A DNA stretch of 32,000 bases from NCBI GenBank assembly GCA_958369225.1, contig CATXID010000001.1, positions 597,295 to 629,294 of the forward strand. Reading direction: 5' to 3'. This document shows, piece by piece, positions 1 to 14,205 of this stretch. Under the pieces are notes generated by a model. That model ran no database searches. It worked only from the letters and a program-made list of their open reading frames with translations, and was not told where the DNA came from. Numbering within the stretch: the first letter of the stretch is position 1; each line of letters starts with the position of its first letter. The stretch comes from an uncultured Collinsella sp. (GTDB taxonomy: Bacteria; Actinomycetota; Coriobacteriia; Coriobacteriales; Coriobacteriaceae). The position numbers and the translations under genes were made by a program.

Positions 1-1877
1 CCGCACAGATCATGTTTAGGCAGGTCTTCGAAAACGCCAAGGTGACGGTTGGCAAAAACGTTTTTGACGTTGAGGAATATCTGGACGACACCCGTTTTAA
101 CAGCGCGTCGGGGCTGGCGCTGCGCGTTATTTCTGGTGTGGATGGCGCCCCGATCCCTTCGCGCGAGGACCTGCTCCTTAGCTCTAGCAGGGGAGAGGCC
201 ATTGTGGCGCTCGATGCCCAGCAGGATTATTACGACTGTCTGTATCAGTCGGCATGTATTGAGCAGTATCTCAATAGCCGTCAGGCAGACAATCACAGCG
301 AAGTGGTGGCTTCGATCTTGCGTGGTAAGCAGCAAGAGCGTGTCGCTCTGGATAAGCGTGCCGAGGACCTTATGCGCCAGGCGGTGCTGCATGGAACGTT
401 CTATATCTACGGCAGTGAGTATTCGCCAGTCAAATCGGCGTCTGCCAAGAATATGATCGAGGACTGCGTACGCCAGCTTGTTTCCGTTACGTACAACAAG
501 TTGTCGCTTATTGATAAAAACTACGACAGTGATGTGCAGATCAAGCAAATTCTAACCGCTTACACTCCGGCAATGAATGGGCAAGAGCCTAACGCTGGGG
601 CCATCGAAGCGGTTATGCGCCTGCTGGAAGCTCGCGTTGCCCAACATATGCAGGTAACAATGGGTGAGCTGCTCGAGACGTACCATGCGAAGCCTTATGG
701 TTGGGCGGAAATTGACATTGCCGCCGTGGTTGCAACGCTGCTAGCGCAAAAGCGTGCTCGCCTGCTCTGCGCGGGACAAGCGATTGATCTTAGGGATTCC
801 AAGATCATCGATTATCTGCGAAAGGCTGCTAAGGCACGACAGGCTGTTGTTGAGGCGCGCCAGCAGCTTTCTCGGGCTTCCATATCCAAGGCGCGACAGG
901 CCGTAGAAGAACTGGGCGGCAATCATACTTTGCCGCTCGAAGAGGACAGTCTTGCCGAAGCATGCCGTAAGGAGCTTGAGGGGCGCCGCGACGGCTTAAC
1001 GGGTCTTCTTTCGGTCGAGTACCTGCGTAACCCCGATTACCCGGGCTACAAAGAGGTCGTGGATGCAAAGAACCTTATCGAGAGCGTATTGCAGAGTGGC
1101 CGCGATGCCGTCGATCTAATTGCGGCAATCGCTGGAAAAGAGAACGAGCTGCGGGATACGGCTGAAGATCTCGAAGACATTGACGAGTTTTTCGGGAGCA
1201 AGGTGACCGTATTCGACAGTGCCTGCGAGATATTCAAGCAAATAGAGAGCGAGCGCGATTACTTTGAGGGCTCCTCGGAAACGCTGAATGCACTTTCTGT
1301 CATCAGGGAAGCAGTTAAGAAACCAAGTCTGAGCCTGCAGTTCCAAAAGCTATCCGAGGCAAACCTAAAGGTGAGAGCTGCCTACAAGGAGCTTTTGGAC
1401 CAAAAGCGTATCGCCATGCTCAATTCTGTCGAGGAGCGCTATAAGGATATCGAAGCGTATGCCCAAAACAAGGGCGTTGCGCTGACGCGCATTGGGGAGG
1501 CGCATAGTGCTCGAAAAGATGAGGTACACAATGCAGCGACGCTGACCGCCCTGGATGCTGTGCCCGTCAAGCTCGATCGTGCTCAGACGACCCTGTACAA
1601 AATGATTGACGATGCCTATGAAGAGGCGAATCGTCCCAAACCGGCAAATACGAGCGTGACGGTAACGACTGATTATTCGGGGGCCACTGCGCCAGGCCTG
1701 CCGAATAAGCCCCAATCTGCACCGGCACCTAGGCGACGTGTTAAATCGGTGAGTCGCAGCATGGTGTTTAGGCCGCTGGAGCTGAGCTCGCAACAGCAGA
1801 TTGATGACTATTTGGATGCCGCGCGCAAAGAGCTACTGCGAAGCCTTGAGGGTAATGACGCCATCCGTTTGGGCTAA
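1..1877 (+). CDS. brxC: C-terminal ~620 aa of a large protein whose 5' end is off-window. Its position directly upstream of pglX fits the BREX ATPase BrxC/PglY.
   Basis: The frame is open from the first bases of the window, with no stop before the ATG at 12. It ends at TAA 1875-1877, 9 nt before the pglX start. The visible part is long and helical with no catalytic motif; the P-loop part would lie upstream. The assignment rests on brxC-pglX synteny only. Confidence 0.55.
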   Translation, partial: AQIMFRQVFENAKVTVGKNVFDVEEYLDDTRFNSASGLALRVISGVDGAPIPSREDLLLSSSRGEAIVALDAQQDYYDCLYQSACIEQYLNSRQADNHSEVVASILRGKQQERVALDKRAEDLMRQAVLHGTFYIYGSEYSPVKSASAKNMIEDCVRQLVSVTYNKLSLIDKNYDSDVQIKQILTAYTPAMNGQEPNAGAIEAVMRLLEARVAQHMQVTMGELLETYHAKPYGWAEIDIAAVVATLLAQKRARLLCAGQAIDLRDSKIIDYLRKAAKARQAVVEARQQLSRASISKARQAVEELGGNHTLPLEEDSLAEACRKELEGRRDGLTGLLSVEYLRNPDYPGYKEVVDAKNLIESVLQSGRDAVDLIAAIAGKENELRDTAEDLEDIDEFFGSKVTVFDSACEIFKQIESERDYFEGSSETLNALSVIREAVKKPSLSLQFQKLSEANLKVRAAYKELLDQKRIAMLNSVEERYKDIEAYAQNKGVALTRIGEAHSARKDEVHNAATLTALDAVPVKLDRAQTTLYKMIDDAYEEANRPKPANTSVTVTTDYSGATAPGLPNKPQSAPAPRRRVKSVSRSMVFRPLELSSQQQIDDYLDAARKELLRSLEGNDAIRLG

Positions 1878-1886
1878 GGGAGAAAC

Positions 1887-4436
1887 ATGGATACGAAAGA
1901 GCTCGAAAAGTTTTGCCCTTGGGCGCGCATCCGTTTAATTGACGAGGTTCGTCAGCGTTGCTATGCCTACGGGCTCGACGATGCGGGGCGTGAAGAATTC
2001 GATCGCGATGCAACCATCGTTAAGGGCACGGTGCTCTCTGCGCTCGAGCGTTCACAACGTTCGGAGCTGTATCGCCGCATAGAGCATGGCGGCTATGCGC
2101 ACTTTTGCGAGGAAATGGCCTACACCTGGTTCAATCGCTTCGCTGCAATACGCTATATGGAAGTACGAGGCTATCTGCCTTGTGGCGTCCGCATGCTAAG
2201 TTCATATTGCGAAACCTCGGGGTACGATAGATTTTCGCCAGACTGCTTGCGTATGCCGACGGAGCTTGATCTGCCGGGCTTAGAGCGCGATCGCGTGTTT
2301 GACCTTGTCGCTGCGGCAGATGATGAGGCGCTGTTCCGTCTTATTTTGGTGGCGCAGATGAACGAGCTCGCCGAGTGCCTGCCCGACATCTTTGGCCGCG
2401 TGGGCACGGCGGATGCGTTACTGCTTCCGACAAGGCTTTTGGACTGCGGCGAAGAAGGTGTACTGTGCGCTCTAGTCGAACGGGTTAAGCGAAGCACGTG
2501 GGAAAACGTTGAGTCCTTGGGCTGGATGTATCAGTTCTACAATTCCGAGGTCAAAGACGCATTCTTTAAATCTAAGGCCAAGGAGACGCCGGACACCATT
2601 GGTCCGGCAACACAGCTATTTACGCCCAGCTGGATTGTGCGCTACATGGTGCAGAATTCCTTGGGGCGCTTGTGGATGCTGAACAATCCGGGAAGTCCCC
2701 TGCGCGACGACATGGAGTACTACATCGAGCCCGATACGGAGCACGAGGACTTCATTAAAATCGAGGGCCCCGAGGATATTTCGCTGTGTGATCCGGCTTG
2801 CGGATCGGGTCACATTCTCGTTTACGCTTTTGAGCTTTTGGCAAAGATGTATTTAGAGCGCGAATACCGCATGCGCGATGTCCCCGGACTCATTCTGTCC
2901 AAGAACCTTCATGGTATGGAAATTGACCCTCGCGCCGCCCAGATTGCGGGGTTGGCGCTGGCTATGTGTGCCCGAGAGATGGATAGACGTTTCTTTAACC
3001 GTGGAGTTCAGGCGGATATTGCCGTGCTCGAGCCGGTTATGCTGGAGGAGGATGACATTCCGCACGGCGCCGCGCTTGCCAAGAAGAAGGACCTCATCGA
3101 TGCTCTATCGCATCTGGGCGAGGTCGGCTCGCTGCTCGCTCCAAGTGAGGGCGACCTTGCCGCACTGCGTGAGACGATCGAGCTCACCGGCACCGATGGT
3201 CTGTTTGACGGTAGTTCTAAAAACAAACTGGAATGTGCCCTTAAGACCTGCGAGATCCTCGCTCGCCGCCACGACTGCGTGGTGGCCAACCCGCCCTACA
3301 TGGGAAGCTCTAGCTTCGGCTCCTTCATGTCTAAGTGGGTCAAGAAGAACTACCCCGACGTGAAGAGCGATTTGTTCTCCAGCTTTGTCGTCCGCATGTT
3401 CAATCTCGCCAAAGACCACGGCGAGTGTGGCGTCATGTCGCCCTTCGTCTGGATGTTCATCGGAAGCTACGAGAAGCTCCGCAACGAGATTATCGACAAC
3501 AGAACGCTGACTTCTCTCATCCAGCTCGAGTACTCGGGTTTCGCTGGTGCGACTGTGCCCATCTGTACCTACACGTTCCACAATTCATTCATCAAGGGCT
3601 ACAAGGGCGGCTATGTGCGCCTTTCGGACTTCGTTGGAGCTTCCGGTCAGGCCCCGAAGGCCCTCGAGGCGATCCGAAATCCCGACTGCGGCTGGTTCTA
3701 CCGTCGCGACGCCGAGACCTTCAAACAGATCCCCGGCACTCCCATAGCCTACTGGGCTAGCGACGCGCTTCTGGATGCGTTTGAAAACGCAAAGCAACTC
3801 AGTGAGTACGGAAAACCGCGTCAAGGGCTTGCTACTGGTGAAAACGCTCGTTTCGTTCGCGAGTGGTGGGAAGTCGATGGTTGTAAGAGCGCCTACTCCT
3901 GTGGGTCTATTCAAGAGTCGATTGAAAGCGCTTGTAAATGGTTCCCCTACAACAAGGGTGGCGATTTCCGTAAATGGTACGGAAATAATAGCGCAGTTGT
4001 TAACTGGGAGAATGACGGATGGGAGATTCGTAATTACAAAGACCAGAATGGTAAATTGCTTTCCAGGCCACAGAATACAAACTGCTTCTTTAGTCCATCG
4101 ATTACCTGGTCGAAGATTTCGAGTGGGTCTATTGCATTTCGCTTTAAGCCTGCTGGCCATGTGTTTGATGTGGCGGGTACAAGCGTTTTTAGCGATCAGA
4201 AATCACTCAAGTATCTTCAGGGAGCGTGCAACAGTTCTGTGATTATGCGCGTCGCGAGCATGCTTTCGCCGACACTCAATTTCGAGGTAGGCCAAATCGC
4301 AACCTACCCGATTATTCAGAACGAAGAGCAGGAGCCGTTGGTCAACAATATGGTTGACTCGTGCCGCAAACTATCAAAAACCGACTGGGACTCGTTTGAA
4401 ACCTCCTGGGATTTCAAACGTAATCCTTTGGTGTAG
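1887..4436 (+). CDS. pglX: BREX N6-adenine DNA methyltransferase PglX, N-terminal 849-aa part (N-terminal helical region, SAM-binding and catalytic domain, and the following domain)
   Basis: SD AAGGGAG precedes ATG 1887. The N-terminal signature EMAYTWFNRFAAIRYMEVRGYLP is typical of PglX and type IIG enzymes. SAM motif I DPACGSGH lies at 2790-2813 and catalytic NPPY (VVANPPYMG) at 3288-3299. The ORF ends ...DWDSFETSWDFKRNPLV at TAG 4434-4436, about 320 aa short of a full-length ~1200-aa PglX. Confidence 0.9.
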   Translation: MDTKELEKFCPWARIRLIDEVRQRCYAYGLDDAGREEFDRDATIVKGTVLSALERSQRSELYRRIEHGGYAHFCEEMAYTWFNRFAAIRYMEVRGYLPCGVRMLSSYCETSGYDRFSPDCLRMPTELDLPGLERDRVFDLVAAADDEALFRLILVAQMNELAECLPDIFGRVGTADALLLPTRLLDCGEEGVLCALVERVKRSTWENVESLGWMYQFYNSEVKDAFFKSKAKETPDTIGPATQLFTPSWIVRYMVQNSLGRLWMLNNPGSPLRDDMEYYIEPDTEHEDFIKIEGPEDISLCDPACGSGHILVYAFELLAKMYLEREYRMRDVPGLILSKNLHGMEIDPRAAQIAGLALAMCAREMDRRFFNRGVQADIAVLEPVMLEEDDIPHGAALAKKKDLIDALSHLGEVGSLLAPSEGDLAALRETIELTGTDGLFDGSSKNKLECALKTCEILARRHDCVVANPPYMGSSSFGSFMSKWVKKNYPDVKSDLFSSFVVRMFNLAKDHGECGVMSPFVWMFIGSYEKLRNEIIDNRTLTSLIQLEYSGFAGATVPICTYTFHNSFIKGYKGGYVRLSDFVGASGQAPKALEAIRNPDCGWFYRRDAETFKQIPGTPIAYWASDALLDAFENAKQLSEYGKPRQGLATGENARFVREWWEVDGCKSAYSCGSIQESIESACKWFPYNKGGDFRKWYGNNSAVVNWENDGWEIRNYKDQNGKLLSRPQNTNCFFSPSITWSKISSGSIAFRFKPAGHVFDVAGTSVFSDQKSLKYLQGACNSSVIMRVASMLSPTLNFEVGQIATYPIIQNEEQEPLVNNMVDSCRKLSKTDWDSFETSWDFKRNPLV

Positions 4437-4964
4437 GTGGTCGCAGTGGGACCTGTAACAATCGATGGTGCAAACTATTACTCATCTCAAGATGTCGCTG
4501 AGCTGTGGGGCGTTAAAGAGGCTACGATCAGGAGATATGCAGAGCCGAAGTCCGGCAAAATTCCTGATTGTATTAAACGTGGCAAATACTGGTATATCCC
4601 CGTAACCGCAATTCGGCCGATTACAAAACCAGTGGCGCAGGGCTTGCTGTGGGGCATCATAGGCGTAAAGAATGACCCTTCTTCCTTTTTAGATTTAAGC
4701 GCGGAAGGAATTGACAATTCTTTACTGGACACCGTTCTTAATGAGCTGCATCGGCAGAATTATTTACTCGTGGACTTTGCTATCGATGATCTTCACGAAA
4801 GACTTGTCCAAGCACGAATTACAGTCAAAGGATTTGAGTTAGTTCGTTATAGGAAGCGTTTCAAAGAGAATTCTCTCGAAGATTTTGATCCTGCCGACGC
4901 TATATCCATTGCTCTGTCTGCCGTTCAAACAGTTATGCAGTTAGCTCAATTCTTTCAGGGATGA
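4437..4964 (+). CDS. Small helix-turn-helix protein (excisionase/MerR-like HTH_17-type N-terminus plus an uncharacterised helical C-terminus), encoded inside the pglX split
   Basis: The N-terminus YYSSQDVAELWGVKEATIRRYAE...GKIPDCIKRGKYWYIP matches the Xis/MerR-like HTH pattern (helix-turn-helix followed by a G-K-x-W/Y-x-I/F wing). There is no internal ATG, so the start must be GTG 4437 or GTG 4446; the latter has AGGTGG 5 nt upstream. The sequence is visibly more AT-rich than its flanks. Confidence 0.7.
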   Translation: MVAVGPVTIDGANYYSSQDVAELWGVKEATIRRYAEPKSGKIPDCIKRGKYWYIPVTAIRPITKPVAQGLLWGIIGVKNDPSSFLDLSAEGIDNSLLDTVLNELHRQNYLLVDFAIDDLHERLVQARITVKGFELVRYRKRFKENSLEDFDPADAISIALSAVQTVMQLAQFFQG

Positions 4965-5138
4965 CGAAACCGACTTTATGACGAGCGGGGCGTGGGCGTG
5001 ATGAGTGATAGCTGGTCGTACTCCTTACATCTTTCTCGCTTTAATAAACGGCTTCATTTGTTGTTACTTCGGCTACTCTGCCGTATCAAAATGTCGCCAC
5101 TTGAGCTGAATTACGGCTCGATTAGATTGGGTGTAAAC

Positions 5139-6107
5139 ATGTCAACACTACTCGCCGATAAATACGAGGCTCGCAAGGCCGAGGTCAATGCTCGCTTTGA
5201 GCAGCTTCGCGCTAACGAGGAGGAGCTCAACCGAATCTTTGCCAAGATCTACAACATGGAGGGCGAGGTGCCCATCGAGGTCGAGGATAAGTACGTGTCG
5301 GTGGCACGCATCTTCGACACCGCCGACGAGATCCCCGAGAGCTATAAGGGCAACAAGTATGTGCGCACCAAGCGCGACGAGATCACCTCGCTCATGAGCT
5401 ATGCCGTGGGCTGCATGTTCGGCCGCTATTCGCTGGACGTGGACGGTCTGGTTCTGGCCGACCAGGGTGCCACGGTCTCTGACTATCTGGCCAAGATGCC
5501 CGATCCCGAGAATGTGACCTTTATGCCAGATAGCGACAACGTGCTGCCTATCACCGATGACGAATACTTTGACGACGACATCGTGCGTTACTTTATCGAC
5601 TTTGTGCGCACCGTGTATGGCGAGGAGACGCTCGAGCAGAACCTGGCCTTTATTGCCGAGGCGCTCGGCGGCAAAGGCACCTCGCGCGAGGTAATTCGCA
5701 CCTACTTTTTGAAGGACTTCTTTAAGGACCACTGCCAGACCTATAAGAAGCGCCCTATTTATTGGCTGTTCGATTCGGGCAAGAAGGGCGGCTTTAGGGC
5801 GTTGGTCTACATGTATCGCTATCGCCCTGATTTGTTGGCGCTGATTCGTACGGGTTATATCCATCCTCAGCAAGAACGTTACCGCAATCGGCTGATGTGG
5901 ATTGCCGACCAGATGGAGGTAAGCGACAGCCGTGATCGTGCTCGTCTTGCTAAGGAACAAAAGCGCATAAGCGACCAAGCTGCCGAGCTCGTGAGCTACG
6001 AGGAGAAGGTCCATCACCTTGCAGACCAAATGATTGAGATTGATTTGGATGACGGCGCTAAGGTTAATTACGCCAAGTTCCAGGACGTCCTCGCCAAAAT
6101 CAAATAG
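5139..6107 (+). CDS. pglX: PglX C-terminal fragment (322 aa)
   Basis: EELNRIFAKIYNMEGEV...EVEDKYVSV and KKRPIYWLFDSGKKGGFRALVYMYRY are the conserved C-terminal blocks of BREX PglX. It is in the same reading frame as 1887-4436. 849 + 322 aa adds up to about a full-length PglX. Recognisable homology starts at the ATG at 5139; the frame is open back to 4965, but that stretch looks non-coding. Confidence 0.85.
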   Translation: MSTLLADKYEARKAEVNARFEQLRANEEELNRIFAKIYNMEGEVPIEVEDKYVSVARIFDTADEIPESYKGNKYVRTKRDEITSLMSYAVGCMFGRYSLDVDGLVLADQGATVSDYLAKMPDPENVTFMPDSDNVLPITDDEYFDDDIVRYFIDFVRTVYGEETLEQNLAFIAEALGGKGTSREVIRTYFLKDFFKDHCQTYKKRPIYWLFDSGKKGGFRALVYMYRYRPDLLALIRTGYIHPQQERYRNRLMWIADQMEVSDSRDRARLAKEQKRISDQAAELVSYEEKVHHLADQMIEIDLDDGAKVNYAKFQDVLAKIK

Positions 6108-6139
6108 CCGTCTGCGTGCTAGAAGTCGAAAGAGCCGCT

Positions 6140-8095
6140 ATGGGATCATTGGTAAACAACAATCAGATCATTCGAATCGATAGCAATCTTCTGCTCGATC
6201 CAGCCATGTGCGATGCGTACATGGACGGTTCCTACCTATGCTTGACCCCCAATGAGTTCAACATCTTGTTTTGTATGGCTCAAAAACCGGGTCATGCATT
6301 TTCTCGCCAAGAGCTGTTTGTTGCGGCATTTGGCCACGATGACCCTAAGTCGCATCGAGTGCTCGATAGCCATATCAAGAACATTCGCAAGAAACTGAAA
6401 GAAGATGCCCGCAACGCTCGTTGGCTTAAGGGCGTTCACGGTTATGGCTATCGTCTCGATTTTGCTCCGGGATTTGAGCCTGAGGTGTGCGTTGGTGAGG
6501 GCGGGCGTGTATTTCGTTCTGCGCATGGCGACCGTGTGCTTGTCGTTGATTCTGAGAACCGTATTGTTCAGCTCGATGGCGAGGAACTCGCGCTTACGCC
6601 AATTGAATATAGTGTCTTGAATGCACTTACGACTAGGTCAAGCGTTGAGATTTCAAATGAGGAACTGTCGCAGATCTCGATGGGCGTTGGCTTCGCCGAA
6701 TCGAATAGAGCTCTAGCTTCGCATGTTAAAAACCTCCGTAAGAAACTGGGAGATGAGGTAAAGAATCCCCTGTGGATTAAAACGGTGCATGGTTTTGGCT
6801 ATCGGTTTTTGGGTGCCGAAGAAACTCCCGAGCCGCATGAAGAGCAAATACTAGATGACACCCTAGTCGAGCTTTCCGAGCAGCTGCAAATGGCGTTTGA
6901 GGCAACGTCCGGTTCCATTCTTTTGTGGCATGACGTTGGGGGCGCGTATGCGGATGTCGTCGGACAGCTTTTGTTGCCCGATGATGTCGTGTTGATTCGC
7001 GAGGATGCTGCTAACAAATTTGAGACCATCCGAGCCATTAACGAACTCGGTTTTGACGAGCGAGCGCTATTCTATCGGTCGTCACCGTGCGTTGTCGATG
7101 CAAATGACTGGTTTGCAGACGTTGAAGCAAGCGCCGAGAGCTTTGTCCCTGAGGCGCATGTTGAGGCGATTGAGACACGAGAAGTCGTCGCCGATGTCGA
7201 TGAATGCGGGCCGGCCGCGGCAGCTCCGCGCGCTGCTGTGGCTGAAGACGTACATCCCCAGCCGTTCCATGGCGAGCATGTTGATACCGGATCTGAAGGC
7301 GTCATGGCCAGTGAGCCAACTCTTCCCAAGCTTGATGAGGATTGGTATCTGCTTTCCCAGTTTGCGGAGCTGGCGGGATGCTCGCCCGACGAAACGCTCA
7401 AGCTGGAATTGTTTGCCTATCAAACGGGGTTCGCGCTTTACGCTGACTGCGCCTGCAGAGGTAGGGGTGTAAGCCAGACAGATTTCTACCTGTCTTTGAT
7501 GCATGGAGCTATCGTCGAGCACGATAGCCTGCCTCAATCCATGTTGAACTGTATGTCCTTTAAAAACATGGTCTATCGAGCCATTAGGTCGGGCGACTTG
7601 CTTGACTACGATGAGTCGAGCTGGATTACGCGCGATGGTCTTAATGAGCTTGATATTAGGGATGCCGATTTGCGCAGCTTTGCTTTGGATGCTATCGAGC
7701 GTGGCGCTGATGACGGCACGCCGTACTTTACCGTGCCGTGGCTTAGGCGCTGCGCATCCGATTTGCCCTTACTCGAGTATGGTCTATCCGATGCATTTTA
7801 CGAAAGCGCCCTCTTGTCGCAGGAGGACTTGTTGGGCCACGGAAACCTTGTGGGCATTAAGCTCTTTGCGCCACGCGGCCATTCCATGAAGGGCCGTGAT
7901 TTTATCCAGGCGGTGGTGGCGCGCGAGATATCGATCGATATCGACGATCTTGTCGGCTTGCTTTCGGAAGAGTACGGCGTAGTGGTTCCGCGTGCACAGC
8001 TCATCCAGATAATTCGTAAGTCGGACTTGTTTTATTCAAGCGCTAGCGAGCGCGTATTTGTTAGCCATGACCAGTTTGTACTAGAAGTGGAGTAA
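6140..8095 (+). CDS. Multidomain protein: two tandem OmpR/PhoB-type winged-helix DNA-binding domains, a PglZ-N-terminal-like domain, an acidic linker and an unknown ~260-aa C-terminal domain
   Basis: wHTH 1 spans ~6167-6463 (LTPNEFNILFCMAQKPGHAFSRQEL...HIKNIRKKL...GYGYRL). wHTH 2 spans ~6536-6814 (LTPIEYSVLNAL...HVKNLRKKL...GFGYRF). There is no receiver domain. Residues encoded at ~6863-7153 parallel the first ~100 aa of the PglZ encoded at 11220 (ILLWHD / IVVWHD, LFYR / LIYR, DWFADVEA / DWLADVEA). ATG 6140 has GAAAGAG upstream; GTG 6116 is an alternative start. Confidence 0.8.
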   Translation: MGSLVNNNQIIRIDSNLLLDPAMCDAYMDGSYLCLTPNEFNILFCMAQKPGHAFSRQELFVAAFGHDDPKSHRVLDSHIKNIRKKLKEDARNARWLKGVHGYGYRLDFAPGFEPEVCVGEGGRVFRSAHGDRVLVVDSENRIVQLDGEELALTPIEYSVLNALTTRSSVEISNEELSQISMGVGFAESNRALASHVKNLRKKLGDEVKNPLWIKTVHGFGYRFLGAEETPEPHEEQILDDTLVELSEQLQMAFEATSGSILLWHDVGGAYADVVGQLLLPDDVVLIREDAANKFETIRAINELGFDERALFYRSSPCVVDANDWFADVEASAESFVPEAHVEAIETREVVADVDECGPAAAAPRAAVAEDVHPQPFHGEHVDTGSEGVMASEPTLPKLDEDWYLLSQFAELAGCSPDETLKLELFAYQTGFALYADCACRGRGVSQTDFYLSLMHGAIVEHDSLPQSMLNCMSFKNMVYRAIRSGDLLDYDESSWITRDGLNELDIRDADLRSFALDAIERGADDGTPYFTVPWLRRCASDLPLLEYGLSDAFYESALLSQEDLLGHGNLVGIKLFAPRGHSMKGRDFIQAVVAREISIDIDDLVGLLSEEYGVVVPRAQLIQIIRKSDLFYSSASERVFVSHDQFVLEVE

Positions 8096-8099
8096 GACA

Positions 8100-9323
8100 A
8101 TGGAAATGGAAAAGTTCATCAACACGGGTATTGCTGAGGGCTGGGTTCGCAAAACCGACAATAGCGAGCGCAAGTTTATTAACGGTCAGAACCAGGATTG
8201 TCCAATTTACGAGGTGCGCGTCGATAAGTTGCATTTCAATGTGCAGAATGGACGAATTGCTACCTTCATTTCGCGCTATCAGGCAGAGCATCCCGAGGGC
8301 CTGCCTCAGGATCAAACGGAGCTCGATAACCTCATTGCGGGTATGGTCGAGGCGGATAACCCCAAGCATCTTAAGACGACCATGTTGGATATTAAAAACA
8401 AGGGCCAACAACAATCTGCGATCATCTTGACCAACGGCGTTGTCATTGACGGTAACCGTCGTTTTACCTGCTTGCGTAAGTTGTCTGCTGCCGAGAACAC
8501 CCTTCGCATGCTGCGCTGCTGTGTGTTCCCCGATACCTATGACGAAAATGCCATTAAGGGCCTTGAGCTCGAGATTCAGCTGGGCGAGGACACCAAACAG
8601 GAATATGATGCCATCTCTCGTCTGGTAGATATCGATAGGTGGGTCAATGAAGGGCGTATGACGGCAGAAGAATATGCCAAGCATGCCAATATGAAGCAGA
8701 GCGAAATGAAGAACAGTCTCGCTCAAATCGATATGTTGAAAGATTTTCTTGAGTTCTGCGAGGCTCCCGGCGCATTTCATATTGCCCAGGACCTTAAGTT
8801 GCAAGGCCCTATCGAGTCGCTTACGACCAGGCTTGGTAAGGTCAAGAACAAGGACGATCGAGAAGAGATTAAAAATGCCGTGTTTGCAAATTTGTTGTGT
8901 CAGACGCTCGGTGACCGCACGCGTGAGGTGCGCGAGTTTATCGATAATTTGATTGATGACGACAAGCTGCGCGAAGAGCAGCTGGATTATACCGTTGAGG
9001 TTTTGGAAAGGCTTGAGGAAAAGCCCGAAGACGTGGTTGTCACTACGGAATATCTTCGCGATACGTTTGGCTCTGACACGCGTTTGAAAGAGGGGATGAA
9101 GGCGTCTAGAACCGTTGCCCGCACGAAGGCCGGCAATCGTAACATCAAAAACGGACAAGTGCGCGCCGTCCGCAACGCACTCTCGAATGTTGGCGAAGTT
9201 GACGTGGAAATACTACACAAACTGGAGCCCGAACAACTTGCCAATATGCAGGATGGGCTGCAGTCCCTTCTTGAGAAAGCCCAGGAAGTTCTCGATGTCG
9301 TCCAAAAAACTCTAGAAGGCTAA
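8100..9323 (+). CDS. ParB/Srx-fold (ParB N-terminal-like) domain protein with a helical C-terminal half
   Basis: KGQQQSAIILTNGVVIDGNRRFTCLRKL is the ParB-N/DndB-like core, with DGNRR at 8448-8462. The upstream block VRVDKLHFNVQNGR resembles the first ParB-N box. The ATG is 4 nt after the preceding stop and has GTGGAG upstream. Confidence 0.75.
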   Translation: MEMEKFINTGIAEGWVRKTDNSERKFINGQNQDCPIYEVRVDKLHFNVQNGRIATFISRYQAEHPEGLPQDQTELDNLIAGMVEADNPKHLKTTMLDIKNKGQQQSAIILTNGVVIDGNRRFTCLRKLSAAENTLRMLRCCVFPDTYDENAIKGLELEIQLGEDTKQEYDAISRLVDIDRWVNEGRMTAEEYAKHANMKQSEMKNSLAQIDMLKDFLEFCEAPGAFHIAQDLKLQGPIESLTTRLGKVKNKDDREEIKNAVFANLLCQTLGDRTREVREFIDNLIDDDKLREEQLDYTVEVLERLEEKPEDVVVTTEYLRDTFGSDTRLKEGMKASRTVARTKAGNRNIKNGQVRAVRNALSNVGEVDVEILHKLEPEQLANMQDGLQSLLEKAQEVLDVVQKTLEG

Positions 9324-9326
9324 GCA

Positions 9327-11204
9327 ATGCGTTTATATCAGCGAGGCGGACAAATCTATCTTGATCCCGAGCCTCTCGATGCCGACTCTCTGCGTCGCAA
9401 TGCTCGCTTTAAGATGACCTGCAGGGCATACGTCAGATGTGTCGTTAAGGGTCATATTTTGCTTGAAGAGATCGGCAACTATACGGAGTTCGAAAAGATT
9501 GTTGGCAAGTTATCGAAGGTTGCCAGCCGTCTTGGTGTGGCGCTATCGGTCGATGAGGACCTTCAGGACGGCTTTACGCAGATTCGCGAACTTGCCGAGC
9601 AACGTTCGCGTTTGGGGAATGAGATCAAACGCGGCGATCACAAGCACGATGCCCATCTCGCAGAGTTCTCGGAGGTCGTCGATGCCGCCATGGTGCGTCC
9701 GCTAAAGGATCGTCAGATGCGCGACGCGTTTTTCTTGGCAACGATGGGACGTGCGGGAAACTTCTCGGTGCCGGGGTCGGGTAAAACGGCGACCGTGCTG
9801 GGTGCATTTGCCTTTTTGGCGGCCCGCAGCATGGTCGATCGCATTATGGTCGTGTGCCCAAAAAACGCATTTGATTCCTGGGCGACGGAGTGGGGACTGT
9901 GCTTTGGTGATAAGCGGCCGCTCAGCTTGTTTACGACGCAAGACGATGCTTACCGAAAGCTTGGTAAGTCTGACCGTCGGAGCTATATTCGCGCTCGTGT
10001 GGGCGGTTGCAATTTGCTGCTTGTGAATTACGAGGCGGCTATTGGCGTTGCCGAGGAACTCAGTAAGGTCGCTGGAAATCGTACGCTTTTGGTGTTCGAC
10101 GAAATCCATCGCGTTAAGCGCGTTGGCGGAAAGCAAGCTAACGCGGCTCTCGTGGTTTCCAAGAGTGCTCCCTATACGTTTGCCCTGACGGGCACGCCAA
10201 TTCCTAACGGATATATCGATATTTACAATATGTTGCACATTCTGTATCCGCGGGAGTATGACAACTTTTTTGGCTTTGAGAAAAGCGAGCTCAAAAATGC
10301 CGAGGACTCGGACATTGAGCTCGTGAACAACAAGCTGCAGCCGTTTTATTGCCGTACGACCAAGGATGACCTAGGCGTCCCGAGGGCTGAGCCCGACGAG
10401 CTTATCAAGGTGTCGTCTGGCGAGCGTACGAATCTACTGCTCGGCGTTATTAAAAACCGTTACCGTCGCAACAAGCTGACCTTGATGCTGCGTGTGCTGC
10501 AGATGGAAAACGATCCGATTGACCTGCTCGAAACGCTTAATCCCGAAGACTATCGTTGGATTATCGAAGAAGACGAGGAGACCGGCGAGGTCGATGCCGT
10601 CGACTACTCCGATAAGATTGTGGGCATGATTCGATCTGCCGGGGCATCGAGCAAACGTGCTCGATGCTGCTCTCTTATTGGCGACTTGGTGGCACAGGGG
10701 CGCTCGGTTATCGTCTGGTGCATTTTCATCAAGAGCATGTCCGATCTTCAGCGCGGTCTGGCTGGTATGGGGATTGAGGCGCGTACGATTAACGGCCAGG
10801 ATGACCTTGTCTGTCGTTCGGCAGACCTGGATGACTTTAGGGCTGGCAAGTTTCCCGTACTCATTACCAATCCTCATACGCTTGCCGAGTCTGTCTCGCT
10901 GCATTCGATTTGTCACGATGCCGTGTACTACGAGTACAGCTTTAATCTGGTTCATTTGCTGCAGTCCCGCGATCGAATCCACCGTTTGGGCCTGCCGCAA
11001 GATCAGCAGACAAGGTACTACTACCTTTCGGAAGATTACGACCTTGGAAAACCCGATCCATGGTCGCTTGACGAGGAAATATATACTCGCCTGCGCGAAA
11101 AAGAGAACACCATGCTCAGGTGTATTGATTCCGAAATACTCGAGACGCAGCCTACCTCTCAAGAGGATTTGGATGCTATTTTCGCCGGTTTGTTTGATGA
11201 CTAG
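9327..11204 (+). CDS. SNF2-family superfamily-2 helicase/translocase (the COG0553-like class to which BrxHII belongs)
   Basis: Motif I VPGSGKTA lies at 9768-9791 and motif II DEIH at 10098-10109. Motif III LTGTPIPNG is SNF2-typical, and the C-terminal helicase lobe has motif VI LLQSRDRIHRLGL. The ATG is 3 nt after the ParB-like stop. Confidence 0.9.
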   Translation: MRLYQRGGQIYLDPEPLDADSLRRNARFKMTCRAYVRCVVKGHILLEEIGNYTEFEKIVGKLSKVASRLGVALSVDEDLQDGFTQIRELAEQRSRLGNEIKRGDHKHDAHLAEFSEVVDAAMVRPLKDRQMRDAFFLATMGRAGNFSVPGSGKTATVLGAFAFLAARSMVDRIMVVCPKNAFDSWATEWGLCFGDKRPLSLFTTQDDAYRKLGKSDRRSYIRARVGGCNLLLVNYEAAIGVAEELSKVAGNRTLLVFDEIHRVKRVGGKQANAALVVSKSAPYTFALTGTPIPNGYIDIYNMLHILYPREYDNFFGFEKSELKNAEDSDIELVNNKLQPFYCRTTKDDLGVPRAEPDELIKVSSGERTNLLLGVIKNRYRRNKLTLMLRVLQMENDPIDLLETLNPEDYRWIIEEDEETGEVDAVDYSDKIVGMIRSAGASSKRARCCSLIGDLVAQGRSVIVWCIFIKSMSDLQRGLAGMGIEARTINGQDDLVCRSADLDDFRAGKFPVLITNPHTLAESVSLHSICHDAVYYEYSFNLVHLLQSRDRIHRLGLPQDQQTRYYYLSEDYDLGKPDPWSLDEEIYTRLREKENTMLRCIDSEILETQPTSQEDLDAIFAGLFDD

Positions 11205-11219: not shown

Positions 11220-13841
11220 ATGAAGCTTGCAGATATTACATCCGAGCTGCTGCATTTGTTTGCAGGTCAGGACGCCGATTGCGGGGGCGCCATTGTTGTA
11301 TGGCATGATCCGTCCGGTGAATTTGAGGATATGCTTGCAGATTTGGAGCTGCCGGGCGTCAGCGTTCTCGTTGATCGCGAGGGTGGTCGGTTTGCTATCA
11401 AGCGTAAGCTCAATGGTGACTTGGGCGGACGTAAGGTGCTTATATATCGTCGCTGCGTAGGGGAGCCGTCTGGCGATTGGCTGGCGGATGTTGAAGCGCG
11501 TTGCGTCCCGTTTGCCGCCGACTATGTTTCTGTGCAGCTACGCGAGATCGGCGCGGTTGATTCGTATGAGATGCGCGCGGCGCTTGAATCCCATAAAGCT
11601 TTTTTTGCCAAGCGCCGCAACGTTATAAAGCTCAACAAGTTGCTACATTCATCGAGAGAAGTCGCTGTTGAGACCGTCGATGAGCTTGAACTTGGCATTT
11701 TGGCTACCTGCTTGGGTGTCAGCGAGCTCGATCCCGCGGCAATCGTATCAGGCTATTTGGCACTCCTGCACGAGGGCAATGCTGATCAGGTGGTTGTCCT
11801 ACTTGCTGAATATGAGATGAATGGCTATTTCTGCGAGCTCATTCGTCATTGGTGTGGTTTTGAGGGGAACGCGCTCGAGCTATCTCGTGTTCCCGAGTTG
11901 CTGGTCCACGTGTTGCTCACCGCCTGCTCACGGTCGGTGACGGGTGGATGTCTGGACGCGCTGTCGGGACGCTTCTCTTCCCAGGCTGTTCACGCCGCGT
12001 TCTGCCGCGCTTGCGTTGATCATTGGGTTCGTGGCGGTAATCGTCTATTGCTGTTGAGTATGACAACGGCGGTAGAGCGTGAGCTTGAGCTTGGAAAGAT
12101 ACTCGCTGACGTTGGTCTTGACTGTATTGCCGGAGCCGACGTCTTTCCCTGCATCGATGCCGCCATTCTGCGCATGCTGTTTGAGCGGGTACGTCTGTCT
12201 GTGGATGCTGCTGATGAGGTTTTGTCGGTCGTCGTCTCTCGTCGCGGATCGCTCTGGTATGAGGAACTTGCCTGCTATTATCGCGGCGTTTCGGCTGCAG
12301 CTCATATGCAGCGTTTTTATCGCGACCATGTAGAGGGTTTTGCGGGCATGGGGGCTTTGGCCCTTTGGGGTTCTTATGTCAGCGATTTCTATCGCATGGA
12401 CGCTTGGTACCGTGAGCTGGTGACAGAGTTCGCCGGTGCCTTTAGAGCGGGGGAGTACGAGCTCGATGAAGACTTCCGCGCCTGCTTTGAGTCGATGGAA
12501 GCTTTGTATAAAGGCTGGTTTCTTAAGGAGCTCTCTCGCCGTTGGGCAAGCGCATCGGGCGACGCATTGGGCTTGCAGGGATATGTGAAAGGTATTCCGC
12601 GTCAGGTTGATTTTGATCTGAGCTACGTTGAGCCCGCGAATCGCCGCGGAAAGCGTATTTGGGTCATCGTATCTGATGCTTTGCGCTATGAGGTTGCTGC
12701 AGAACTCGCCGAGCGTCTTGAGCGCGAGACAAAGGGTCAGTGCGAGCTTGGTGCCGTGCAAGGCGTGTTTCCTTCGATAACCAGATGCGGTATGGCTGCC
12801 TTGTTGCCTCATGGAACGATGCGTTACGAGGCATGCGGAGAGGCAGGATCGGGCTTTGGCGTGCTTGTTGACGGGGGGCGCGTCGATACCATCGAATCCC
12901 GCCAAAAGGTGATTGGCAAGCATTATGAGGGCGCTGTTGCGGTTCGCTATGACCGTTTTGTCGGCGAGATGGACCGTGCCGAACGCAAGAAAGCCGTGGG
13001 AGACGCGAACGTTGTCTATATCTATCACGATCTCATTGATGCCATTGGTGACAAGGCCGCAACCGAGCGCAGGGCGTTTCATGCCTGCGATGAAACAATT
13101 GACGAGTTATCGGTGCTGGTCAAGCTCATTGTGCGTGAGTTTATGTCGTCTCGAATCGTCATTACGGCAGATCATGGGTTTCTGTATACCGCAGAGCCGC
13201 TTGCCGAATATGATCATACGAGTGTTGCGGACGTGGCGGGTGACGTCATTGAGGCTGGACGCCGCTGGGCTGTTGCCTCGAGCGATTCTGAGTCCGATAC
13301 GCTGCTTAAGGTTGCTCTACCCGCTTCTGCTGGTAGCCTCGTGGGCTTTTCGCCACGTGAATGCGTGCGTTTGCGACGTCCCGGCGGAGGCGAGAACTTT
13401 GTCCATGGCGGCATCTCATTGCAGGAGATGTGTGTGCCGGTCTTGACCTTTAGCAATAAGCGCGCCGGAACGCGTGGCTTTGTCGCATCGAGCCCCGTTG
13501 GCTTGTCCCTCGTTACGCAACTTGAATCCATCTCGAATACGTCTTTCTTCCTGGAATTTCTGCAAGATGAGGCGGTGGTCGGCAAGATTCTTCCTGCGAA
13601 CTATGAAGTGTTTGTTGTCGATCGCAGCGGAAACCCTGTAACCGACATTGCAAGAATCGTAGCCGATTTGACTGAAGTCGATGCGAGGGCGCGCCGCTTT
13701 AAGGTAATGCTGACGGTGCGTCCAACCGTTGAACTTGATGAACGCGCGGAGTATGCACTTTGCCTGAAAAACGCGGATAGCGGCGAAGAGCGTGTTCTTC
13801 AGACGCTGCACTTCCATGTTTATCTGGGTCGTGAATGGTAA
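11220..13841 (+). CDS. pglZ: BREX alkaline-phosphatase-superfamily protein PglZ
   Basis: It is 873 aa. The PglZ-domain signature VIVSDALRYEVAAELAERL lies at 12663 onward. The alkaline-phosphatase-like ITADHGF lies at 13161-13181 and is followed by HGGISLQEMCVP. It sits in BREX context. Confidence 0.9.
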   Translation: MKLADITSELLHLFAGQDADCGGAIVVWHDPSGEFEDMLADLELPGVSVLVDREGGRFAIKRKLNGDLGGRKVLIYRRCVGEPSGDWLADVEARCVPFAADYVSVQLREIGAVDSYEMRAALESHKAFFAKRRNVIKLNKLLHSSREVAVETVDELELGILATCLGVSELDPAAIVSGYLALLHEGNADQVVVLLAEYEMNGYFCELIRHWCGFEGNALELSRVPELLVHVLLTACSRSVTGGCLDALSGRFSSQAVHAAFCRACVDHWVRGGNRLLLLSMTTAVERELELGKILADVGLDCIAGADVFPCIDAAILRMLFERVRLSVDAADEVLSVVVSRRGSLWYEELACYYRGVSAAAHMQRFYRDHVEGFAGMGALALWGSYVSDFYRMDAWYRELVTEFAGAFRAGEYELDEDFRACFESMEALYKGWFLKELSRRWASASGDALGLQGYVKGIPRQVDFDLSYVEPANRRGKRIWVIVSDALRYEVAAELAERLERETKGQCELGAVQGVFPSITRCGMAALLPHGTMRYEACGEAGSGFGVLVDGGRVDTIESRQKVIGKHYEGAVAVRYDRFVGEMDRAERKKAVGDANVVYIYHDLIDAIGDKAATERRAFHACDETIDELSVLVKLIVREFMSSRIVITADHGFLYTAEPLAEYDHTSVADVAGDVIEAGRRWAVASSDSESDTLLKVALPASAGSLVGFSPRECVRLRRPGGGENFVHGGISLQEMCVPVLTFSNKRAGTRGFVASSPVGLSLVTQLESISNTSFFLEFLQDEAVVGKILPANYEVFVVDRSGNPVTDIARIVADLTEVDARARRFKVMLTVRPTVELDERAEYALCLKNADSGEERVLQTLHFHVYLGREW

Positions 13842-13868
13842 GTGGGGGCTGAATAGGGAGGCTGCATC

Positions 13869-14090
13869 ATGAAGATCGAAGTTGATGTCGGTCAGCTGCG
13901 CGAGAGTCTGCTCGATCGTGCGGGGAGCGCGACGGCCGCGGGCTTTCCGGCTGCCATGCTCGACGTGATGGATATCGAGGACGAGTCGCCCCAAGAGTTC
14001 CTAGCCCGAGCCGAACGCGAAGGCCTCGACCTCTGCGACTTTGCCGTCGATGATGAGGACGACGGCTATGACACGGACGAGGACTGGTAG
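13869..14090 (+). CDS. 73-aa highly acidic hypothetical protein with C-terminal tail DDEDDGYDTDEDW
   Basis: A strong SD GGGAGG lies 7 nt before ATG 13869. It is co-directional with pglZ and starts 27 nt after the pglZ stop. It is the last ORF before the island boundary. I recognise no domain. Confidence 0.55.
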   Translation: MKIEVDVGQLRESLLDRAGSATAAGFPAAMLDVMDIEDESPQEFLARAEREGLDLCDFAVDDEDDGYDTDEDW

Positions 14091-14110
14091 CCGCGATTGA
14101 ACTTCAACCC

Positions 14111-14205
14111 CATCCCCCTCAATAAGTTGCGGTGGAATAGGGACTGAAATGGCTGTTCAGAAGCCTATTCAGTCCCTATTTCACCGCAACTTATGGGTGG
14201 GGATG
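14111..14205. repeat. ~95-bp imperfect palindromic element with core arm AAGTTGCGGTG(G/A)AATAGGG
   Basis: Left arm ATAAGTTGCGGTGGAATAGGGACTGAA (14122-14148) pairs with right arm TTCAGTCCCTATTTCACCGCAACTTAT (14068+100 = 14168-14194) with one mismatch. The outer extension CCATCCCC.../...GGGGATGG also pairs. The element fills the convergent gap between the acidic ORF and the antiporter gene. A related copy lies at 31933-32000. Confidence 0.8.

Follow-up and report, generated by a model that had tools for sequence, protein, structure and literature searches.

An AbiR-like three-gene module between pglX and pglZ in a brxL-less type 1 BREX lineage of Coriobacteriia: a probable replacement for BrxL

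Background

What are three genes doing between pglX and pglZ of a type 1 BREX (bacteriophage exclusion) locus if none of them is a canonical part of that system? The question is raised by a stretch of 32,000 nucleotides (nt) from an uncultured Collinsella sp. (contig CATXID010000001.1, positions 597,295 to 629,294), which we call the window. Coordinates are positions in this window unless another locus is named, and a BREX island occupies its first 14 kb on the + strand. The three genes, here A, B and C, encode a putative adaptor protein, a ParB-fold protein and an SNF2 ATPase. In our opinion they are best read as an AbiR-type module (adaptor, ParB-like clamp/NTPase, SNF2 translocase) that has become fixed in a brxL-less type 1 BREX lineage of Coriobacteriia, is wired into it and has taken the place of BrxL; we give this reading a probability of roughly 0.55. 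The wiring probably runs through BrxB, and the replacement of BrxL is the probable, not the proven, part of the proposal.

A first-pass annotation, made from the letters alone, had noticed three co-directional open reading frames (ORFs) between pglX and pglZ. Its coordinates are confirmed: A, B, C and pglZ share one direction and are spaced by 4, 3 and 15 nt. Promoter and terminator scans of the locus gave nothing exceeding shuffled sequence, hence a single A-B-C transcript is plausible and we claim no more for it. The view that the three genes are not canonical type 1 components is upheld, and so are the domain calls (two winged helix-turn-helix, wHTH, domains and a PglZ-N-like domain in A, a ParB fold in B, SNF2 in C), by Pfam, PADLOC and AlphaFold2 (AF2) models compared with Foldseek. 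What that annotation overlooked is that brxL is missing; given this absence, we read the genes not as accessory cargo but as a probable substitute for BrxL.

The first gene carries a copy of the PglZ N-terminal domain

Gene A (6116..8095, + strand) encodes 659 amino acids (aa) if read from the GTG at 6116; the start is more likely the ATG at 6140, which has GAAAGAG upstream, and gene callers give a 651-aa product. Within A lies a PglZ N-terminal-domain-like, BrxB-binding-type domain at aa 250-347 (6863..7156, + strand). BLASTP aligns it with aa 23-112 of the PglZ of its own locus at 35% identity (E 6e-9), PADLOC reports a PglZ match in A (E 7e-6), and a hidden Markov model (HMM) of the domain reaches PglZ N-termini at E 1e-11 to 1e-18. 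Residues 240-659 were modelled with AF2 at a mean confidence (pLDDT) of 80.5, and in this model residues 250-347 superpose by Foldseek on PglZ1-98 of 9zll_F with TM 0.80 and a root-mean-square deviation of 2.4 A. The entry 9zll is the Acinetobacter BrxC:BrxB:PglZ crystal complex; the domain model also matches 9nv3_C, which is Salmonella PglZ, and 9zn5_B. The first-pass idea that this gene is related to PglZ thus becomes more precise, since BLASTP, HMM and Foldseek agree on a structural copy of the PglZ N-terminal domain. Because A carries a true copy of that domain, wiring into BREX is favoured over a random passenger.

Residues 1-96/98 of PglZ are its BrxB-binding domain, and the pair of BrxB and PglZ N-terminal domain docks on the AAA+ domain of BrxC (PMC11974810, PMC13326643). 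By analogy we infer that the corresponding domain of A binds BrxB. Its identity to PglZ N-terminal domains ranges over 21-38%, and the PglZ encoded in the same operon is not favoured among them. It is an old paralogue, and on these two grounds we rejected the idea that the PglZ N-terminal domain was duplicated recently or has undergone gene conversion.

Upstream of this domain lie two OmpR/PhoB-type winged-helix domains (6239..6814, + strand; aa 42-114 and about 141-233), recognized by Pfam Trans_reg_C in two stretches (E 3e-38). A has no receiver domain, and NCBIfam response-regulator models align over their C-terminal thirds only, far under their cut-offs. Downstream, a disordered linker leads to a C-terminal tandem winged-helix module of 255 aa (7328..8092, + strand; aa 405-659). 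In an HMM comparison of about 80 A proteins, all members of the family end in this module, and its AF2 model resembles, by Foldseek, the tandem winged-helix domain (tWHD) of Rpc5, UFL1/DDRGK1, STK19 and WH2-4 of SelB. The N-terminal wHTH pair is absent from half of the sub-clades that are embedded in BREX, where A proteins have 402-434 aa. Two loci with such a short A have an additional 222-aa ORF without a Pfam family between the C-terminal part of pglX and A (8100-8768 in L027, 8103-8771 in L032); it may take the place of the wHTH pair, which in Collinsella is part of A itself.

A ParB-fold protein and an SNF2 ATPase

Gene B (8100..9323, + strand) encodes a ParB/Noc/KorB-fold protein of 407 aa, with an N-terminal NTP-binding-type domain, a helix-turn-helix (HTH) domain and a long C-terminal helical region. 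It has no significant Pfam, NCBIfam or PADLOC family match, and sequence and profile searches of the PDB returned nothing relevant. Among 26 B members, 14 have weak matches to the Pfam family ddrB-ParB and none matches ParBc at threshold. Since the sequence searches gave nothing significant, we assigned the fold from the AF2 model (pLDDT 89.4) and Foldseek. The model matches Noc (7nfu), ParB (7bnk and 6sdk), Spo0J (1vz0) and KorB (8qa9), all with probability 1.0, over about 250 columns that cover the nucleotide-binding N-domain and the HTH domain; ParB of pNOB8 and viral ParB-like proteins are matched too. Three motifs are invariant in 54 homologues, namely N47-x-Q-N-x-R52, D117-G-N-R-R121 and E156..Q160. 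The DGNRR motif pointed out in the first-pass annotation is among them; the Walker A motif GSGKT, which it also named, is present in gene C.

Gene C (9327..11204, + strand) encodes an SNF2-family ATPase/translocase of 625 aa. It scores 55.4 against Pfam SNF2-rel_dom (cut-off 24.9) and 25.8 against Helicase_C (cut-off 23.5), and motifs I, II, III and VI are intact in the translation (GSGKT, DEIH, TGTP and QSRDRIHR). Its sequence matches in the PDB are solved structures of SNF2 remodellers (Fft3, ISW1, Ino80 and CHD1). There is an uncharacterised N-terminal region of 140 aa and no nuclease domain. In some genomes the pair is broken: C is split into two ORFs in L012 (4692-6570) and L084 (5582-7510), and in L032 (10001-11235) a truncated B lies next to an A that is damaged at its neighbouring end. 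A frameshift or an assembly error could be the cause, and the module may be decaying in some strains.

A conserved operon, embedded in BREX or standing alone

The first-pass annotation proposed to check whether the three families co-occur, and they do. The order A-B-C is kept in about 90 loci. The C-terminal module of A, B and C follow each other in every locus with enough flanking sequence, the genes abut or overlap, and the tree of B is congruent with that of C. The three genes thus make up an operon that is conserved widely and has co-evolved. For the genomic context we used 80 genome loci with the closest relatives of the window protein (one of them, L016, assigned after inspection of the locus). 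Because of this choice, embedded loci are over-represented in the following counts. In 25 of the 80 the trio is embedded between the C-terminal part of pglX and pglZ; nine have it directly upstream of a different BREX locus, one has another B clade followed by pglZ, and in 45 no BREX gene lies within 10 kb.

In the tree of B as in that of C, the embedded loci group into a single clade, save for one stand-alone lineage nested in it (L005.2/L025.2). Three embedded sub-clades are mirrored in PglZ, whose identity between them falls to 38-47%, which argues for long co-inheritance of the trio with the BREX genes. The trio is constant in the embedded loci and has co-diverged with pglZ. Every embedded C is without a nuclease domain and is directly followed by pglZ. 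The PglZ-like domain is confined to the A proteins of the embedded clade and to its sister stand-alone lineage L005.2/L025.2; no other stand-alone A has it. No brxL was found within 10 kb on either side of the locus (L086-L088, L001-L004), downstream of pglZ (L027, L029) or in the rest of the window. Methylation does not require BrxL, and in other BREX types helicases replace it (PMC11974810, PMC13326643, PMC12839542). The most complete survey of BREX loci, from 2026, which lists many embedded nucleases and describes helicases in place of BrxL in types 5 and 6, mentions neither a ParB-SNF2 module nor Collinsella (PMC12839542).

One contig, from an uncultured Eggerthella sp. (L056, 5-9091), carries a large-type A split in two (390 and 672 aa), B, C and then a PglZ gene (895 aa). 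Its B and C belong to a different clade, with B 30-34% identical to the B of the window, and its A lacks the PglZ-like domain. The contig ends upstream; this would be a second, independent junction of an A-B-C trio with pglZ.

Most stand-alone relatives look different. Their A proteins have 660-1635 aa, with two or three RNA_pol_A_CTD domains and a Sigma70_r4 HTH. At their N-terminus, eight stand-alone C proteins bear a PLD/HKD nuclease that resembles the one in PbeA (PADLOC PbeA, E 2e-67); the PLD region of one long C protein had no sequence match in the PDB. In one stand-alone locus a Cas4/DUF2779 nuclease gene lies 3' of C. The embedded form is derived: it has lost the sigma-4/alpha-CTD region and the nuclease and gained a copy of the PglZ N-terminal domain.

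Collinsella has a second type of stand-alone trio, with an A of 1500-1600 aa and a fourth gene, D2 (310-364 aa, no family or PDB match). Such trios lie directly upstream of another trio, in tandem (L005, L025, L062, L073, L076, L083 and L084), or directly upstream of a different BREX locus (L058, L066, L067, L069, L070, L072 and L079-L081). The BrxC of these neighbouring BREX loci is about 28% identical to that of the window, and the arrangement is that of a composite defence island.

It may be argued that the trio is an autonomous, AbiR-like nested defence system that is merely housed in the BREX operon, as PARIS or BrxU are, and provides an independent or back-up layer. Defence systems embedded in BREX are indeed well documented. 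Further, as the counts given above show, most members of the family stand alone or beside a separate BREX, members occur on plasmids of Enterococcus and Lactobacillales, and one stand-alone lineage is nested within the embedded clade. Nevertheless, we find this explanation rather unlikely. The embedded version has neither a nuclease domain nor a nuclease gene, unlike the stand-alone relatives with their PLD fusion or Cas4-like gene; its A has gained a PglZ N-terminal domain; and brxL is absent from every embedded locus that was examined. Finally, the trio has long co-diverged with pglZ, while true cargo turns over in another slot of the same operon, the one inside pglX.

The split pglX and its cargo slot

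The first-pass annotation placed the trio between pglX and pglZ. This is correct for the 3' side; pglX itself, however, is split, and the immediate 5' neighbour of the trio is only its separately encoded C-terminal fragment. The two polypeptides are cleanly divided at profile positions 869/876. The N-terminal part (1887..4436, + strand, 849 aa) covers positions 1-869 of the 1174 of the PADLOC PglX profile (E 7e-279), scores 888 bits against NCBIfam BREX_1_MTaseX and has Pfam Eco57I, N6_Mtase and MmeI_Mtase matches. The C-terminal part (4992..6107, + strand) covers positions 876-1170 (PADLOC PglX, E 1e-116) and positions 904-1209 of BREX_1_MTaseX. Its homology begins near aa 50, so the true start is probably an ATG near 5136. 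The split is retained across diverged embedded loci, and the C-terminal part is unusually conserved among them (70-78% identity); for these reasons it looks, from sequence, like a functional gene rather than a pseudogene.

The gene content of the slot between the two parts differs even where B proteins are about 98% or more identical. In the window, the slot holds an ORF of 175 aa (4437..4964, + strand) with a Pfam HTH_17 match (E 4e-8). The near-identical locus L006 has in its place (6228-6890) a 220-aa ORF without a Pfam family and with an RNSLAH (HEPN-like) motif, L027 (2049-7009) has SIR2 and a 977-aa SNF2 protein, and L028 (2634-5749) has HEPN_RiboL-PSP and AAA_14/DUF4143. Hence the pglX/pglZ junction, which had been suggested as a landing pad for accessory genes, holds a constant trio; the landing pad of this lineage is the slot inside pglX. 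We also considered an invertible shufflon at the split and dropped the idea because a repeat search found no convincing inverted repeats around it.

Relation to AbiR and to restriction-modification systems

If the trio is not a passenger, is it related to something that is already known? The closest known system appears to be the lactococcal AbiR, whose primary descriptions are reportedly those of Twomey (2000) and Yang (2006). AbiR of plasmid pKR223 is a three-gene operon (AbiRa/Ri, AbiRb/Rii, AbiRc/Riii) that, according to a 2026 review, encodes a sigma70-like DNA-binding protein (about 820 aa), a ParB-like protein for which PDB 5K5D is the reported match, and a protein that combines an N-terminal ATP-dependent-restriction-endonuclease-like domain with an SNF2/INO80-like ATPase; a ternary complex of the three is predicted confidently (PMC13064643). 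AbiR hampers the replication of phage DNA; it depends on the LlaKR2I methylase, in whose absence it is toxic (PMC13064643). The PDB entry 5K5D is also among the Foldseek matches of the B protein of the window. Stand-alone A-B-C loci have the same architecture as AbiR, that is an A with Sigma70_r4 and RNA_pol_A_CTD, a ParB-fold B and a PLD-SNF2 C. We compared the systems by their described architecture and context, not by sequence alignment. The first-pass statement that the trio matches no named system therefore stands in one respect, as PADLOC v2, Pfam and NCBIfam assign neither A nor B to a defence family, and has to be qualified in another, as the stand-alone relatives share the architecture of AbiR. 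No model or source-database name mentions AbiR, and in the literature that was searched AbiR is not tied to BREX.

The gene neighbourhoods of B and C support the link to AbiR. On one Collinsella contig a trio abuts a DpnII-type restriction-modification (R-M) system. On a Lactiplantibacillus plantarum plasmid (L092, 4559-11336) B and a PLD-SNF2 C lie between a C5 methyltransferase on one side and a MutH/Sau3AI-family endonuclease plus Vsr on the other, with an IS30-like remnant in the place where A would be. LlaKR2I is an isoschizomer of Sau3AI, and the arrangement resembles the reported interleaving of AbiR with LlaKR2I, as far as described gene order can tell. On the L. lactis plasmid pIBB109_AgSa_3 (L091, 4122-12136) B-C comes after a genuine type III Mod/Res pair, the stop codon of one gene overlapping the start of the next, and the same arrangement occurs on other Lactobacillales plasmids. 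L. lactis plasmid proteins are 36% (B, E 5e-46) and 41% (C, E 2e-135) identical to those of the window. Both L091 and L092 have the B-C dyad without any A gene. Given these DpnII-type, C5 methyltransferase/Sau3AI-type and type III neighbours, in addition to BREX, the dyad is repeatedly joined to methyltransferase-based self-marking systems. A crude methyltransferase motif scan near the stand-alone loci flagged 10 of 55 and was too insensitive to be used; tblastn with four specific R-M queries added nothing further.

A more general version of our proposal follows, which we put forward tentatively, as a possibility that falls short of an even chance. The ParB-like/SNF2 dyad could be a portable restriction-arm module for any self-marking methyltransferase system (R-M of the Sau3AI or DpnII type, type III R-M, BREX), with B as the first nucleotide-gated sliding clamp of the ParB type in immunity; in the BREX lineage of Coriobacteriia it would take over from BrxL, docked on BrxB-BrxC by means of a duplicated PglZ N-terminal domain.

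Proposed mechanism and the points against it

How would an AbiR-type module in BrxL's place work? We propose that A binds BrxB, and thereby the BrxC hub, through its PglZ-like domain, as PglZ does. Its winged helices would hold DNA and recruit B and C. B would then load on DNA as a nucleotide-gated clamp of the ParB type, and C would translocate along DNA that lacks PglX methylation, which may lead to a block of phage replication or to delivery of the DNA to the PglZ nuclease. Methylation by PglX would protect the host, as M.LlaKR2I does in the case of AbiR. The module would thereby fill the role that BrxL has, or BrxHII in other BREX types.

Several observations speak against this reading. 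The link to AbiR is one of architecture and context only, and PADLOC v2 gave no AbiR match for any A, B or C, including the versions from Enterococcus, Lactococcus and Paraclostridium. In a manual alignment B seems to have Asn where the GERR box of ParB has its catalytic Glu, and its behaviour as a clamp or CTPase is uncertain. The A domain has only low identity to PglZ N-terminal domains and no bias towards the PglZ of its own locus. The search for brxL covered loci, and the gene could be encoded elsewhere in the genome. The nested stand-alone lineage L005.2/L025.2 carries the PglZ-like domain, and the 17 kb visible there contain no BREX gene; hence the domain is not strictly dependent on BREX in cis. 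Finally, there are the genomes with a disrupted C (L012, L084) or B (L032).

Improbable alternatives: regulation or DNA maintenance instead of defence

A different suggestion would be that the trio is a regulatory module in which A and a KorB-like B control transcription of BREX or of other genes, while C remodels DNA-protein complexes. Dedicated regulators, BrxR for example, are common in BREX loci; A contains a pair of OmpR/PhoB-type DNA-binding domains, and one of the structural matches of B is the transcriptional repressor KorB. We nonetheless regard it as improbable. Half of the embedded sub-clades do without the wHTH pair, yet the module is kept there; nucleases are fused to C in stand-alone relatives; and the effects known for AbiR, a block of phage DNA replication and toxicity when the methylase is missing, are not those of a gene regulator. 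Nor do the data give any reason for a 625-aa SNF2 motor in strict operon linkage with a regulator.

The distribution of the family bears on a last possibility. In a scan with one genome per species, relatives of B were found in 212 species-level genomes, from Coriobacteriia, many Clostridia, Leptotrichia and one methanogen bin. Profile searches gave at least 1896 clusters at 90% identity, and an exhaustive search gave 1706 clusters at 50% identity, 340 of them with E<=1e-30. Among 2.9 million viral contigs there was one partial match, and we rejected a phage origin of the family on this ground. Plasmids that carry the family number 71, with 52 from Enterococcus, and many family members lie on conjugative or mobilizable plasmids. 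Megablast of the cassette itself against plasmids gave no match. On the plasmids, A, B and C are annotated as 'sigma factor-like HTH DNA-binding protein', 'hypothetical protein' and 'DEAD/DEAH box helicase'.

That the trio serves DNA maintenance on mobile elements (plasmid partition or establishment, or competition between plasmids), its position in BREX being incidental, is suggested by the many members on conjugative or mobilizable plasmids, by the classical role of ParB-family proteins in partition and by the name 'ParB/RepB/Spo0J family partition protein' that PGAP gives to some B members, but it is very improbable, because there is no ParA partner in the operon, the linkage to R-M systems, BREX, toxin-antitoxin and Fic genes and nucleases is consistent, AbiR was discovered through phage resistance, and the locus of the window is chromosomal with housekeeping genes on either side.

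The archaeal occurrence needs a separate comment. In a Candidatus Methanomethylophilaceae bin (L046, 4-8098) A-B-C lies on a short contig beside an EF-G-like gene, which could reflect a transfer from bacteria to archaea or a binning error.

The BREX locus of the window

The remainder of the island is a type 1 BREX. The window begins within brxC (3' part, 12..1877, + strand; Pfam BrxC 4th, wHTH and helical domains; PADLOC BrxC, E 4e-92), and the complete gene, with brxA and brxB upstream, is visible in L086-L088. The final gene is pglZ of BREX-1 type A (11220..13841, + strand; TIGR02687, 475 bits; PADLOC PglZ, E 2.5e-180). Contigs with an identical N-terminal part of PglX show the complete locus to be brxA-brxB-brxC-pglXN-HTH17-pglXC-A-B-C-pglZ, bounded by an aminotransferase gene and a cation antiporter gene. 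The type 1 core, that is BrxA, BrxB, BrxC, PglX in two parts and PglZ type A, is thus present in one locus.

The genes downstream of pglZ are housekeeping genes (the antiporter, phosphoenolpyruvate carboxykinase, DegV, NAPRTase and glutamate kinase). The guanine-cytosine (GC) content is 46-56% in the island as against 60-64% in the flanking housekeeping genes, with a jump at about 13,850-14,200. This shift at the island boundary suggests, as far as base composition is a guide, that the BREX island was acquired horizontally. The host is a Collinsella species, and the locus of the L006 genome matches the B of the window at 100%.

Implications

What is new here is a BREX-1 lineage that lacks brxL, has a module of the AbiR type built into it and carries a second copy of the domain that docks on BrxB; AbiR itself is known and mechanistically uncharacterised. 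The lineage bears on how BREX stops phage replication and on what BrxL does, as it has a ParB-like/SNF2 pair, probably in BrxL's stead. Since its adaptor has a version of the domain by which PglZ is tethered to BrxB, the BrxB-BrxC hub is suggested to be a docking platform of general use. Should the AbiR link hold, the trio would belong to a large family that includes members in common human-gut Collinsella and on Enterococcus plasmids. If the dyad is portable in the way outlined above, it would offer a genetically simple handle on how BREX converts the recognition of unmethylated sites into a block of replication. The general rule would be that the module repeatedly rides on methylation-based systems. 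There is also a practical side. PADLOC v2, Pfam and NCBIfam overlook A and B entirely as defence families, since no model in any of the three identifies either protein as such.

Comparison with known systems

Protein by protein, the likeness to known families is partial. A shares two Trans_reg_C domains with OmpR/PhoB response regulators and lacks their receiver domain. With the PglZ family it has only the N-terminal domain of about 100 aa in common, including the motif DW[LF]AD.EA that occurs in A and in PglZ N-termini; there is no PF08665 match and no phosphatase or nuclease domain in A. B has invariant counterparts of the three boxes of the CTP-dependent clamps ParB, Noc and KorB, a box I-like NxQNxR, a box II-like GNRR and a box III-like E..Q. 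Its box II, however, is DGNRR (DGNRRFT) instead of GERRxR, the third Arg being absent in a manual alignment, its operon has no ParA partner, and it has a long C-terminal helical region.

Among BREX motors, BrxL, BrxHII and C (the last by prediction) are all ATP-driven DNA motors tied to BREX, and C is an SNF2 ATPase in a locus without brxL. We rejected orthology of C and BrxHII because the match is weak and partial: E is 0.006 for PDLC02504, labelled BrxHII, and 4.8e-6 for PDLC02500, described as BrxHI, only the C-terminal lobe aligns with either model, and C scores higher against ZorD. C also differs in having an obligatory ParB-like partner and an adaptor, and in its position between pglX and pglZ, unlike that of BrxL and BrxHII after pglZ. 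BREX type 5 has a duplicated brxC/pglY; the present locus has a single brxC.

Three further systems share a part with the trio, and membership in each of them was rejected. Pbe has the PbeA-like PLD domain that is seen on eight stand-alone C proteins; its CxC ABC ATPase and DndE are absent from the locus. Dpd also pairs a ParB-like ATPase with an SNF2 helicase, and there is no TGT/DpdA or DpdB match here. BrxU, of the GmrSD type, is a ParB-fold enzyme embedded in BREX, and B has no HNH/DUF1524 domain.

This leaves AbiR, whose class of phenotype, a block of phage DNA replication, is the same as that of BREX. The trio of the window departs from it at both ends: instead of the sigma-4/alpha-CTD region, its A has two OmpR wHTH domains and the PglZ-like domain, and its C lacks the nuclease domain, so that the features of AbiR are shared only for B and the SNF2 part of C. 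Where AbiR has LlaKR2I, the presumed partner methylase of the trio is PglX, and the module lies inside the BREX operon itself.

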